Source of the DNA: an uncultured delta proteobacterium
Lineage (GTDB): Bacteria; Desulfobacterota; Zymogenia; Zymogenales; Zymogenaceae
Assembly: GCA_963735595.1 (NCBI GenBank)
Contig: CAVTLK010000001.1
Location: 704,001-768,000 of the forward strand
DNA length: 64,000 bases
Direction of reading: 5' to 3'
Positions 4,437 through 13,603 of the stretch are shown piece by piece. The number at the start of each line of letters is the position of its first letter. Position 1 is the stretch's first letter. The position numbers were made by a program, and so were the translations under genes. The notes under the pieces were generated by a model. The model saw only the letters and a program-made list of their open reading frames with translations, ran no database searches and was not told where the DNA came from.

Positions 4437-5093
4437 TCATATATTACGTATTTTTTTACGTATCTCTTCGACGACTTGCGGTATCGACAAGCGCGTAGTA
4501 TCGATAATAACGGCATCCTCGGCAGGTTTGAGCGGTGAGAGCTCCCGTTCGGAATCGTTTTTGTCCCGTTTTTCGATCTCCGCTACAACCGCGGTAAGGT
4601 TTGCCGATTCCCCCTTGTCAACCCGTTCGCGGTAGCGGCGCTCTCCGCGCACCTTCGGATCGGCCGTCAGAAAAAACTTCGCGTCCGCGTTCGGCAGGAC
4701 GACCGTACCGATATCGCGGCCCTCCATGACGACACCTCCCCCCTGCGCGGCCCCTCGCTGAAGGTCGATCATCGCTTTTCTCACTGAGGGACGGGCCGAT
4801 ACCGCCGAGGAGAGCCTGTCTATAAGCGGCGTGCGGATTGCTTCGGAAACGTCGCGGCCGTCCATGAAGAGCCGCTCCCCCTTGAACCGGAGCTCGATGG
4901 CATCGCAGATCTCGGCCAGGCCACGGTCGTCGGCAGGGTTTATGGAGCGCTCATGGGCGGCCAGGGCAACCGCCCGGTACATAGCCCCCGTATCGACGTA
5001 CGAAAGCCCGAGCTGATGGGCCAGCAGCCTGCTGATCGTGCTCTTGCCGGAGCCGGCCGGCCCGTCGATGACGATAGTGAGATCCTTCTTCAT
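4437..5093 (-). CDS. cmk: Cytidylate kinase
   Basis: IDGPAGSGKST, DTGAMYR and EGRDIGTVV motifs. Start placed at ATG 5093 (MKKDLTIV); the longer ORF only reads through a repeat. Confidence 0.95.
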   Translation of the reverse strand: MKKDLTIVIDGPAGSGKSTISRLLAHQLGLSYVDTGAMYRAVALAAHERSINPADDRGLAEICDAIELRFKGERLFMDGRDVSEAIRTPLIDRLSSAVSARPSVRKAMIDLQRGAAQGGGVVMEGRDIGTVVLPNADAKFFLTADPKVRGERRYRERVDKGESANLTAVVAEIEKRDKNDSERELSPLKPAEDAVIIDTTRLSIPQVVEEIRKKIRNI

Positions 5094-5148
5094 GGATATG
5101 CCATACCATCTTGATATTTTACTTTCAGCGTAGCGTAAAAAGAAGACC

Positions 5149-5270
5149 TCACCACAAAGGCACAAAGGCACAAAGAAGAGGGCTTCTTTATATATGCTCA
5201 CTGACTACGTTCATTTAATGGAGCGGAGCTCTTCTATTGCTTGCTTTGTGTCTTCGTGTCTTTGTGGTGA
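5149..5270. repeat. Inverted pair of 27-bp repeats (empty element 1)
   Basis: tcaccacaaaggcacaaaggcacaaag (5149-5175) and ctttgtgtcttcgtgtctttgtggtga (5244-5270). Confidence 0.9.
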
Positions 5271-5330
5271 ATCCCTCTCTTCTCCTATTCCTGTTCCGCC
5301 GGAAGTAATATTCTCGAATGAACACGACTT

Positions 5331-6620
5331 CTATTTCGTTACCGAATCCAGCAAATCAAAGAATGATGGAAACGATGTCCCCACGCATTCGAGGTCGGTC
5401 ACCGTTACCCCCTCTTGGGACGCCAGGCCCGCCACCGCCGCGGACATCGCCGCCCGGTGATCGCCGAACGAGGCGACATTGCCCCCGGTGAGTCCCCCGG
5501 TACCCTCGATGACCATCCCGTCCGGCCGATCCTCCGCCTTTCCCCCGAGCGCCCGGAGGTTATCGCAGGTCGTCTTGATTCGGTTGGATTCCTTTACCGC
5601 CAACTCCCCCGCGTCGCGCACGGTTGTCGTCCCCGTCGCGGCGGCCGCCGCGACGCAGAAGACCGGGATCTCGTCGATCATCCGCGGGATGATCGGCCCG
5701 CCGATCTCGATTCCCGACAGCTCCGACGAACACACCACGAGGTCGGCCACCGGCTCCCCGGAGACCTCCCGCTCGTTTTCGGCGGATATGTCTCCGCCCA
5801 TTTTGACGAGCGCTTCTATGATCCCGGTGCGGCCGGGGTTCATCCCGACGTTTCGTATCGTCAGTTCGGAATCATGCGTGATGAGCGCCGCGACAATAAA
5901 AAAGGCCGCCGACGAGATATCACCGCTCACCTCGATATCCCGGGCCCGGTACGCCTCAAACGGCTCTAACACGAGGTAGTTCCCTTCGCGGGAAAGAGGA
6001 ACTCCCAAATATCGCATCATCCGCTCGGTATGGTCGCGGGATGCTTCCGGCTCCGAGACGCGTGTCTGGCCCCGGGCACACATCCCGGCCAGGAGAATCG
6101 CCGACTTCACCTGTGCCGAGCTGATCGGCAGGTCGTAGGTGATGCCCGCAAGATTACCCCCGGAAATTGCCAGCGGCGGATACTCTCCCCCGCGGCGCCC
6201 GAGGATGGAGGCCCCCATCTCGCGAAGCGGCGCCGTCACCCGGCGCATCGGCCGTTTCGTGAGGGACGCGTCTCCGGAGAGCACCGAAAAGAAGGGCCGG
6301 GCCGAAAGGAGGCCGGCCAGAAGGCGCATAGACGTGCCGGAGTTGCCGCAATCGAGGATCTCCTCCGGCTCGGTAAACCCGCGCATCCCCCTGCCCGTAA
6401 CAACTAGGGTCTTTCCGTCATCCGTGATTTCTGCGCCGAGGGCACGCATGATGTTGGCCGTCGCAAGGGTGTCGGCGGCCCGGAGGAAGTTGGTGATCCG
6501 CGTAGTGCCGTCGGCCTGAGCAGCAAAGATGACCGACCGATGGGAGATTGATTTATCGCCGGGGATGACGATCTCGCCGCGAAGGCCCGCGGCGGGCTGG
6601 ATGAATCGTTTGTTTTTCAC
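5331..6620 (-). CDS. aroA: 3-phosphoshikimate 1-carboxyvinyltransferase (EPSP synthase)
   Basis: PGDKSISHR, DCGNSGTSMRL, SAQVKSA, RDHTERM, KESNRI and GDHR motifs. Confidence 0.97.
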   Translation of the reverse strand: MKNKRFIQPAAGLRGEIVIPGDKSISHRSVIFAAQADGTTRITNFLRAADTLATANIMRALGAEITDDGKTLVVTGRGMRGFTEPEEILDCGNSGTSMRLLAGLLSARPFFSVLSGDASLTKRPMRRVTAPLREMGASILGRRGGEYPPLAISGGNLAGITYDLPISSAQVKSAILLAGMCARGQTRVSEPEASRDHTERMMRYLGVPLSREGNYLVLEPFEAYRARDIEVSGDISSAAFFIVAALITHDSELTIRNVGMNPGRTGIIEALVKMGGDISAENEREVSGEPVADLVVCSSELSGIEIGGPIIPRMIDEIPVFCVAAAAATGTTTVRDAGELAVKESNRIKTTCDNLRALGGKAEDRPDGMVIEGTGGLTGGNVASFGDHRAAMSAAVAGLASQEGVTVTDLECVGTSFPSFFDLLDSVTK

Positions 6621-6716
6621 TTATTCTTATATTAAACTATATAATGCATAAAAGTCTCGTTGGTATAAACGATATAAGGCTATTTATCTGCTTCTACTAT
6701 ATCCCAAAAGAGAATT

Positions 6717-7228
6717 CCACCACTAAGACACAAAGCCACAAAGGAGAAACCTTCTTATGAATAGTTAACTAGAGCACAATTCTTTTGATGCCGTCTTTTA
6801 TTTTCGGAACGTTGAAATTAATCAGAAGCCCGAGGCGCATGCCGGTTAGTTTTAGATACGTCAATAGCTGTGCTTCGTGCACGGGAATCATCTTATCAAC
6901 CGCCTTTATCTCCACATTCAGGAAATCATTTACGATAACATCGCACCTTAGTCCGGCGTCTAATTTTAGGCCATCATAAATTACGGGCAATGCTATCTGA
7001 TTCTTGAAGGAAATATTGCGCTTAGTTAACTCATGACAAAGACATACTTCGTAAACACCCTCAAGTAGGCCGGGACCAAGCCCGGAATGAACCTTATACG
7101 CAGCGTCTACGACCTCTCTGGCTGCTACCTCAGTTTCATACGTAATGGGCTCGTATATTTCCTTTCTCATCCGATTACCAGCTGAAACCTATTTTTCTCC
7201 TCTTTGTGTCTTTGTGCCTTTGTGGTGA
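6717..7228. mobile_element. Putative small element: GxxExxY gene bounded by 27-bp inverted repeats
   Basis: ccaccactaagacacaaagccacaaag (6717-6743) and ctttgtgtctttgtgcctttgtggtga (7202-7228) enclose an AT-rich gene. Mobility is inferred. Confidence 0.6.
6769..7170 (-). CDS. GxxExxY family protein (PD-(D/E)XK nuclease superfamily)
   Basis: VHSGLGPGLLEGVYEVCL, RCDVIV, VEIKAV and AQLLTYLKLTGMRLGLLINF signatures. Confidence 0.93.
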   Translation of the reverse strand: MRKEIYEPITYETEVAAREVVDAAYKVHSGLGPGLLEGVYEVCLCHELTKRNISFKNQIALPVIYDGLKLDAGLRCDVIVNDFLNVEIKAVDKMIPVHEAQLLTYLKLTGMRLGLLINFNVPKIKDGIKRIVL

Positions 7229-7265
7229 ACCTCTCCCGTGCTTCGTTTACAATCCTAAAGATATT

Positions 7266-7399
7266 TCACCACTAAGACACAAAGGCACTAAGAGCTGCAA
7301 GACAAATTAATATAATCCTTGTTTGTGCCTTCTTATAGCTTGCCTATTTTCTAAGTTCTTTTAGCTTTTCCTCTTTGTGTCTTTGTGCCTTAGTGGTGA
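7266..7399. repeat. Inverted pair of 27-bp repeats (empty element 2)
   Basis: tcaccactaagacacaaaggcactaag (7266-7292) and ctttgtgtctttgtgccttagtggtga (7373-7399). Confidence 0.9.
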
Positions 7400-7421: not shown

Positions 7422-8435
7422 TTACGCCGTCCTTCCCACCGCCTCGGCCACCTTTCTTACCCGCTCCATCATGTCGGCAAACTTCTTTGGTTTCAGCGAC
7501 TGGTTGCCGTCGCTGACTGCCTTCTCCGGGTCGGTGTGAACTTCTACAAGAATTCCGTCGGCCCCCGCCGCGATCCCCGCCAGCGCCGTCGGCGTAACGA
7601 GGTCCCACCTGCCGGTGGCGTGGCTCGGATCGACGACGATAGGGAGATGCGTGAGGCCCTTGAGGACCGGAACCGCGTTTATGTCCAGGGTGTTTCTGGT
7701 CTCCGTCTCGAACGTGCGGATACCCCGCTCGCAGAGGATAATATTAATGTTCCCTTCGGAGGCAATGTATTCGGCCGACATCAGGAGCTCAAGTATCGTC
7801 GCGCTCATCCCGCGTTTGAGGATGATTGGTTTTTTTAGCTTGCCGACTTCCTTGAGGAGGTCGAAGTTCTGCATGTTGCGCGCCCCGATCTGTACGGCAT
7901 CGGCGTATTTGTCCACGAGTTCGGTATGCCGGATATTCATCAGCTCGGTGACCACCGGGAGTCCCGTCTCGTCACGTACCGCGGCAAGGTATTTGAGCCC
8001 CTCTTCTCCGAGCCCCTGGAACGAATAGGGGGACGTGCGCGGCTTGAACGCCCCGCCGCGAAGCACGGTGGCCCCCATCGCCTTTACCTCGCCGGCGATC
8101 TTCCGGAGGATATCGATCCCCTCAACCGCGCAGGGACCGGCGATCACCTGGATTTGCCGCCCCCCGATGGGGACTTTCCCGATGGTGACGACCGAGTCCT
8201 CCTTTTTGAAGTCGCGGCTGACAACCTTATACGGTTTGAGGATCGGGACGACCTTTTCGATACCGGGCAGCGTCTCAACCGGCAGCCCGCTGAGCTTCCG
8301 TTCGTCACCGATCGCGCCGACGATGGTGCGCTCCTCACCCCTAGAGACGTGAGGTTTGAGTCCCACCTCCGTAATACGATCGATGAGATGTTGAAGGTCC
8401 TGTTCACTGTGACCGGGTTTAAGGACAAATATCAT
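7422..8435 (-). CDS. aroF: 3-deoxy-7-phosphoheptulonate (DAHP) synthase, type I-beta
   Basis: [42 protein letters not shown] and DPSH motifs; N-terminal regulatory domain. Confidence 0.96.
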
Positions 8436-13036: not shown

Positions 13037-13603
13037 ATGAACACGAAAACATTACTGATCGGTTTGACATTTGCCTTGGCCGCGATGTTTATCGCCCCTT
13101 CGATTGCGTATATGAGTCACGAGCCCGGCACCGTTATCGACGTCAAGGATTTTGTTGGTAACAGCTTCGAGTCCGCCATGCTAAGCGATGAGCCGGGCAC
13201 TATCATCGACATCAAGAGCTTCACCCTCGACACCTTCAAGAGCGCGATGGTTAGTGACGAGCCGGGTACTATTATCGACATCAAGAGCTTTACCGTCGAT
13301 ACCTTAAAGAGCGCTATGGTTAGTGACGAGCCGGGTACTATTATCGACATCAAGAGCTTCGTCGTTGATACTCTCAAAACAGCCCTCTTGAGCGACGAGC
13401 CTGGCACCGTTATCGACGTCAAGGATTTCGTCGGTAACAGCTTCGAGACGGCCATGCTAAGCGACGAGCCGGGTACTATTATTGATATCAAGAGCTTCGT
13501 CGTTGATACTCTCAAGACGGCCCTCTTGAGCGACGAGCCCGGCACGATTATCGACATCAAGAGCTTCGTCGTTGACACGACTCCCATGGAATCCATCAGT
13601 TAG
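13037..13603 (+). CDS. Secreted protein with 7 x 23-aa tandem repeats
   Basis: GGGAGG RBS; signal peptide (..APSIA); repeats SDEPGT(I/V)ID(I/V)K(S/D)F..; terminator downstream. Confidence 0.9.
   Translation: MNTKTLLIGLTFALAAMFIAPSIAYMSHEPGTVIDVKDFVGNSFESAMLSDEPGTIIDIKSFTLDTFKSAMVSDEPGTIIDIKSFTVDTLKSAMVSDEPGTIIDIKSFVVDTLKTALLSDEPGTVIDVKDFVGNSFETAMLSDEPGTIIDIKSFVVDTLKTALLSDEPGTIIDIKSFVVDTTPMESIS
13115..13597 (+). repeat. 69-bp coding tandem repeat, 7 units
   Basis: Units start at 13115, 13184, 13253, 13322, 13391, 13460 and 13529. Confidence 0.95.

Follow-up and report, generated by a model that had tools for sequence, protein, structure and literature searches.

A GxxExxY gene predicted to encode a PD-(D/E)XK nuclease and its association with dispersed word-array repeats in bacterial intergenic DNA

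The window analysed in this study is a 64,000-nt stretch of the source genome (G000), and the relatives used for comparison are designated G001, G002, G003 and G005. An operon with the gene order hisC-aroF-[GxxExxY]-aroA-cmk is located on the minus strand of the window, and six copies of a 27-bp repeat unit, hereafter called arms, lie between its genes. The features of the locus are as follows:

4437-5093, minus strand: cmk, host gene (context)
5069-5343: aroA-cmk intergenic block, candidate recombination tract with a phylogeny discordant with the flanking genes
5149-5175, plus strand: arm of the aroA-cmk doublet (motif search of the window)
5176-5243: 68-bp filler of the aroA-cmk doublet, unrelated to the G001 and G003 fillers at the same site
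5244-5270, minus strand: second arm of the aroA-cmk doublet (motif search of the window)
5331-6620, minus strand: aroA, host gene (context)
6717-6743, plus strand: arm 3' of the GxxExxY gene, inverted to 7202-7228
6769-7170, minus strand: GxxExxY gene, 133 aa, TIGR04256/PF13366, predicted minimal PD-(D/E)XK nuclease
7202-7228, minus strand: arm 5' of the GxxExxY gene, a TCAC head and three CACNAAG words at an 8-bp period
7229-7265: 37-bp head-to-head spacer between arms 7202-7228 and 7266-7292
7266-7292, plus strand: arm of the gene-less aroF-GxxExxY doublet (motif search of the window)
7293-7372: 80-bp filler of the aroF-side doublet, with a close copy of the same orientation in G001, on the opposite flank of the GxxExxY gene there
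7373-7399, minus strand: second arm of the aroF-side doublet (motif search of the window)
7422-8435, minus strand: aroF-type DAHP synthase, host gene (context)

Generally, an arm has a TCAC head, after which the CACNAAG word occurs three times with an 8-bp period. Single arms form no self-hairpin (-0.7 and -0.3 kcal/mol), and pairs of arms do fold. The core 15-mer of the arm matches the window 12 times against 0.06 expected, and a count of 12 was reached in 0 of 100 shuffles. The preliminary description of this DNA had claimed six arms in inverted orientation with fillers of 68 and 80 bp, all of them intergenic in the operon, and an AT-rich GxxExxY gene enclosed by two of them; coordinates and strands, the intergenic position of all six arms and the enclosure of a gene with a GC content of 0.44 (0.59-0.64 for the neighbour genes) were confirmed. 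Its reading of the arms as three pairs holds in part: inverted pairs do exist, but the pairing is ambiguous, since arm 7202-7228 is the inverted partner of 6717-6743 and also forms an alternative head-to-head pair with 7266-7292, 37 bp apart. Elsewhere in the window, a 188-aa ORF (13037-13603) with a signal-like N-terminus contains about six near-identical 21-aa repeats (EPGT.ID.K.F...), and an antisense ORF overlaps it.

The GxxExxY gene is the sole family member detected in the G000 genome. Its product matches TIGR04256 with 143.6 bits (cut-off 35) and PF13366/PDDEXK_3 with 137.3 bits (cut-off 22), and a GIY-YIG match was absent from the profile search. The predicted catalytic set comprises E37, D77, E87-x-K89 and Q101-xxx-Y105, and QxxxY is a motif of RecB/Cas4-like nucleases. 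Among 198 homologous proteins, E37 is conserved in 198 of 198, D77, E87 and K89 in 197 and Q101 in 194, and N118 is also conserved within this range (194-198 of 198). The structure model of the protein has a pLDDT of 95. Its top fold match is Cas4 SSO0001 (4ic1; Z 7.5, rmsd 4.2, 100 aligned), with restriction-endonuclease and Hjc folds next in rank; these fold scores are middling, with all Z < 8 and no Foldseek E <= 0.001, and the fold searches with the model returned no close solved relative. With the core fold and the D...(D/E)xK motif present, the protein is predicted to be a nuclease of the PD-(D/E)XK superfamily. The genes of G000 and G001, which occupy one and the same site, differ by 32 synonymous vs 11 non-synonymous codons, indicating purifying selection. 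The family as a whole comprises 19,149 clusters at 50% identity, tandem two-domain fusions included, and the search of viral contigs yielded one locus only. In a superfamily survey (PMC3424549), PF13366 is entered as a frequently transferred family whose function is unknown. Proteins P0001-P0004, P0006, P0008, P0010 and P0013, each about 265-295 aa long, are natural fusions that contain the GxxExxY domain twice, a hint of dimer action or two-word recognition.

The two 'empty' doublets had been described as a feature of the operon, which did not hold, as the repeat is genome-wide. The G000 genome (3.6 Mb) carries 57 arms, mostly paired between genes, with 24 further sites outside the window, and the two doublets are therefore ordinary members of a dispersed family. 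Over the 57 arms the word letters are near-invariant, and the variable positions are N and the purine that separates the words. Adjacent inverted arms no more than 200 bp apart form 25 pairs, 13 of them tail-to-tail with spacers of 11-99 nt and 12 head-to-head with spacers in the narrow range of 31-46 nt. With a crude gene caller, 26 of the 28 arm site groups fall inside gaps between predicted genes, and 21 of 26 arm sites lie in co-directional gaps, which is not striking against about 68% of gaps overall. The genes adjoining arms outside the window number 48, of which 32 could be assigned by Pfam to families with metabolic and other cellular roles. As regards the possibility, raised beforehand, that the arms are ends of a known IS family, these 48 genes yielded no match to a transposase or integrase family (E <= 1e-12), and 16 of them have no Pfam match at all. 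G000 holds the word of its own paralog only: eight tandem words characteristic of GxxExxY proteins in other clades occur there in 0-5 copies. Two weak Rfam matches to miRNA hairpins, far below the gathering score, were rejected as generic hairpins, and contig joints at arms in assemblies of four sequencing runs, which spanned pieces of the sequence, were discarded as most likely arms of other organisms.

The two arms of a close pair are not exact copies of each other. At each of two positions, the spacer purine of one arm differs from that of its partner in 21 of the 25 G000 pairs, a higher share than among shuffled partners; the same difference was found in 56 doublets from other genomes (p 0.003) and is absent from 33 gene-enclosing arm pairs. 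Close arms avoid perfect pairing, an anti-correlation opposite to what selection for pairing would produce. The spacer mismatches would fit fixed protein-binding words combined with the stability of a near-palindrome in DNA, or they might reflect descent from an ancestral pair made up of two arm types.

Homologous loci were drawn from named genomes, metagenomes and the phylum of the source organism. The first set contained 144 loci, and a complete gene with enough flank was available in 125, duplicates included. An inverted match with a score of at least 12 between upstream and downstream flanks is present in 95 of these 125 GxxExxY loci, from many phyla; the controls gave 0 of 109 for shifted windows and 2 of 300 for short G000 genes, so the proposed enrichment of arms around GxxExxY genes was observed. 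In the full set (207 loci, 198 complete and distinct), the arms are built from related words, among them CACNAAG, CACAGAG, CGCAGAG, CGCNAAG, CGCAGAT, CACGAAT, ACAGGAT and TCAGGAA. Word labels, assigned to 132 of the 198 loci, change 32 times on the protein tree, while 500 shuffles averaged 68 changes and never gave fewer than 60. The distribution of words matches the protein tree and not the hosts, which bears out the co-phylogeny of repeat and protein that the preliminary description had put forward as a check, and gene and word therefore travel together across hosts. Co-inheritance through linkage alone suffices to make the word follow the tree. Outside the genus, the nearest GxxExxY homologs belong to Verrucomicrobia, Bacteroidota and Methylomirabilota. 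Some genomes carry up to 9 paralogs with different words, and the eight paralogs examined in G067 have about seven different words. A stretch of 3.2 kb in another genome (G083:C32:27330-30526) holds three paralogs with at least two word types. At loci L006, L012 and L009, the upstream arm starts directly after the ATG and may be translated as an N-terminal repeat peptide.

The protein columns most informative about the fifth base of the word are residues 17 and 18 in helix 1. Lysine or arginine at residue 18 occurs in 57 of 80 NAAG loci vs 1 of 41 NGAG loci, and a residue other than threonine or serine at position 17 occurs in 71 of 80 vs 1 of 41; moreover, several loci switch both these residues and the word within the other clade. 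A kinship-corrected test of independent pairs, covering residues 17, 18 and 133 against the word, found 4 supported pairs, and its sign test was not significant. With only 4 independent pairs on supported branches, the link between residues 17/18 and the word is a lead, not a result.

Comparison with relatives points to turnover of whole intergenic blocks. In the congener G001, the aroF-aroA junction also carries the GxxExxY gene, accompanied by two doublets on its upstream side, one on its downstream side and an additional gene. This 194-aa gene (L079 2106-2690) lies between the GxxExxY cassette and aroA, is absent at the junction in G000 and G003, and may be cargo of a block exchange. G003 has the aroA-cmk doublet and neither gene nor arms at aroF-aroA, while G002 and G005 have neither the gene nor doublets at the operon junctions; the gene was not found in two of three congeners. 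The 80-bp filler lies upstream of the gene in G000 and downstream of it in G001, and the G001 aroA-cmk filler resembles that genome's own two upstream fillers, so that units appear to have been shuffled within the locus. In coding DNA of the locus, G000 and G003 group together (identity 0.79-0.99 per 100 columns). In block 5069-5343, G001 groups with G003 instead, with an identity of 0.90-0.91 beside the arms and 23-24 informative sites per window vs at most 8 in coding windows. This discordant grouping suggests that the aroA-cmk block was exchanged as a unit, with its ends near the gene ends.

Five further regions, picked for holding arms, were also aligned with G003, and all 11 of their 11 arm sites coincide with breaks in the alignment. 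Breaks without arms amount to 1 of 8 in three of these regions, and the other two contain several more. Seven sites could be compared with G003, and at six of them arms are lacking there and unrelated intergenic DNA is present instead. The aroF-aroA and aroA-cmk junctions, which had been proposed for comparison in relatives, likewise revealed replaced blocks. No target-site duplication or clean insertion was found in nine pairwise site alignments and the two operon junctions, in relatives of about 94% identity, perhaps too distant for a short duplication. The earlier MITE-like picture thus fails, since intergenic blocks are replaced whole, without target duplication. Other repeat families were also found at alignment breaks (L089, L090), and the hot-spot behaviour is therefore not unique to GxxExxY-linked arms.

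The distribution of gene and arms was also surveyed in 121 phylum genomes, with the pattern CCACNAAG-N1-2-CACNAAG and at least 4 matches counted. A GxxExxY family match is present in 36 of the 121. At least 4 arm matches occur in 13 of these 36 vs 2 of the 85 genomes without a family match (Fisher p 1.6e-6, kin not being independent), and the suspicion that the repeat might be equally common without the gene was not borne out. Arms do occur without a detectable gene, as in G031 with 26 matches and G003 with 14 under a stricter pattern. Of the 13 genomes that combine the gene with 4 or more CACNAAG arms, 8 have no CACNAAG paralog among those fetched, paralog sampling being partial; G067 with 69 arms and G027 with 18 exemplify arms without a paralog of matching word among those examined. 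In G072, a CACNAAG-type paralog is present with 0 matches to the strict pattern. Arms that are abundant without the gene or a matching paralog suggest that they outlast the gene or arrive without it. Genomes G031 (26 arms) and G067 (69 CACNAAG arms) are also candidates for another protein family using arms.

We consider it somewhat better than even, with a probability of about 0.55, that the GxxExxY protein binds the word array and cuts DNA near the arms, after which host recombination swaps arm-bearing intergenic blocks. The three-word CACNAAG arms would be bound by the protein, with residues 17/18 of helix 1 as the likely specificity patch, and the target would be DNA that is nicked or cut near the arms. 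Cut arm-bearing blocks, with or without the gene, might then become hot spots swapped by host recombination, so that cutting would drive block turnover and block replacement would spread arms, and sometimes the gene, among operon junctions. At such a junction, a promoterless cassette would be transcribed, and gene-less arms could persist after loss of the gene. This mode of action would most resemble Ssn/NTS and RAYT/REP, with a different nuclease fold and with an array of words replacing the hairpin.

The arms might instead act at the RNA level, like the intervening sequences of 23S rRNA, by pairing in the operon mRNA as a stem cut by RNase III or GxxExxY that would render the insert harmless to the operon; according to PMC4990558, RNase III excises such ORF-bearing intervening sequences. 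The arms indeed pair around the gene in the coding-strand fold (z -5.2), doublets fold at z -4 to -7, and by a crude longest-ORF call most loci have the gene in the same direction as the upstream neighbour (123 of 162) and the downstream one (137 of 166). However, the two strands fold about equally well. The ratio of G-U wobbles to A-C mismatches on the transcribed strand is 27:27 in G000; in homologous loci the coding strand gave 57:41, 37:25 and 16:9, none of them significant alone, and the pooled excess of 110:75 would be a weak hint towards RNA. Moreover, the words are fixed, variation is found at the spacers only, and partners tend to differ there, the opposite of pairing selection, while clade-specific words and block replacement in DNA would be left unexplained. 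A role of the arms in RNA is weakened by the purine and wobble data, and we regard this explanation as improbable.

Two further explanations keep DNA as the target and assign the protein a different part. The nuclease might be a domesticated gate on incoming DNA, cutting arm-bearing ssDNA that enters the cell and so limiting or steering recombination at operon junctions for the host. Purifying selection on the gene at its one site in G000 and G001 and the dispersal of arms among housekeeping genes would agree with this, as would SsnA, for which PMC11893778 gives a gate role and the same repeat-gene-repeat layout. Patchy distribution in the phylum and among congeners, nearest homologs from other phyla and several paralogs with different words in one genome argue against it, and together they fit selfish turnover better than a domesticated gate, which we judge unlikely. 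Equally doubtful to us is a passive role in which the arms are binding sites only, for example autoregulatory operators, or cargo copied by host recombination or by a Y1 transposase or GIY-YIG nuclease, their spread not being driven by GxxExxY. Arms in genomes that lack the gene, or lack a paralog of matching word, speak for this, as do another REP-like repeat within 400 bp at 8 of 26 arm sites and the four Y1_Tnp and four GIY-YIG matches encoded by G000. Nevertheless, none of these eight genes is positioned at an arm site, a single arm lacks the hairpin needed by Y1 and Ssn enzymes, and the near-invariant catalytic residues would be unneeded by a pure regulator. Other REP-like families of G000 comprise 151 matches to GTCATTGCGAG on both strands and 29 of the GTAG type, in intergenic clusters shared with arms (for instance C5:280400-280800 and C3:41900-42350), and three short GIY-YIG genes and the four Y1_Tnp matches are candidate enzymes for them.

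The association of GxxExxY genes with arms is real, widespread and apparently undescribed; no description of repeats linked to GxxExxY, PDDEXK_3 or PF13366 was found in the literature searched, subscription journals and supplements lying outside the search. Our best reading of the comparison is that cutting near arms and block exchange would make the GxxExxY-arm set a third kind of 'nuclease plus cognate repeat' system acting on DNA, beside RAYT/REP and Ssn/NTS. A more far-reaching and more tentative proposal, which we hold to be less probable than not, is that the whole family consists of sequence-specific PD-(D/E)XK nucleases of about 130 aa, each recognising three tandem copies of its own 7-bp word by a patch of two helix-1 residues and spreading arms and gene into operon junctions by homing-like intergenic replacement, as a third independent system with a readable code. 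For a huge orphan family present in many phyla, the arms offer a concrete candidate for the substrate, and residues 17/18 one for the specificity patch. If the proposal is true, a third enzyme fold would join the few systems that explain dispersed bacterial intergenic repeats, the rapid and phylogenetically discordant intergenic turnover inside housekeeping operons would be accounted for, and tiny nucleases with many natural word specificities might become tools, like the Ssn enzymes.

IS elements with MITEs combine a gene between terminal inverted repeats with gene-less copies. The GxxExxY gene likewise lies between inverted arms, with gene-less arm pairs elsewhere; unlike in IS/MITE systems, no target-site duplication was found, and the fillers between arms resemble, for the most part, neither one another nor the gene. 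A transposase family was also not seen among the 32 arm-adjoining genes with Pfam matches. The RAYT/REPIN and IS/MITE parallels drawn in the preliminary description therefore survive in part, as gene-less intergenic doublets do resemble REPINs, while MITE-like insertion is contradicted by block replacement. Like the intervening sequences of 23S rRNA, the locus has a small ORF between inverted ends able to pair in a transcript, but GxxExxY stands in protein-coding operons, has a predicted nuclease fold and is accompanied by many gene-less doublets.

REP, REPIN and BIME repeats with their RAYT (TnpA-REP) enzymes (PMC3733652) share more with the arms: one enzyme gene per repeat family, clusters, heterodimer arms and an intergenic location, and, as in REPINs and BIMEs, gene-less inverted doublets in both orientations with one narrow and one variable spacer (57 arms, 25 pairs). 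In contrast to RAYT, an HUH/Y1 domain is absent, the arm-flanked gene belonging to PF13366 and the Y1_Tnp matches of G000 lying away from arms; in contrast to REP, the arm logo has no GTAG or CGTC foot and the unit contains no palindrome, and block replacement, not clean insertion, is observed. Ssn nucleases of the GIY-YIG type with their NTS/SRM repeats form many enzyme-repeat pairs across phyla, with a link to recombination (PMC11893778). Their GIY-YIG fold differs from the predicted PD-(D/E)XK fold of GxxExxY, and the GIY-YIG genes of G000 lie elsewhere; unlike NTS, the GxxExxY arm repeats a 7-bp word in tandem and has no hairpin of its own. As in Ssn/NTS, a small gene, here for a predicted single-domain nuclease, has copies of a repeat on either side, and this repeat also occurs scattered between other genes; and, as in Ssn/SRM, the gene is flanked by its cognate repeat across phyla (95 of 125 GxxExxY loci), with the word tracking the protein tree.
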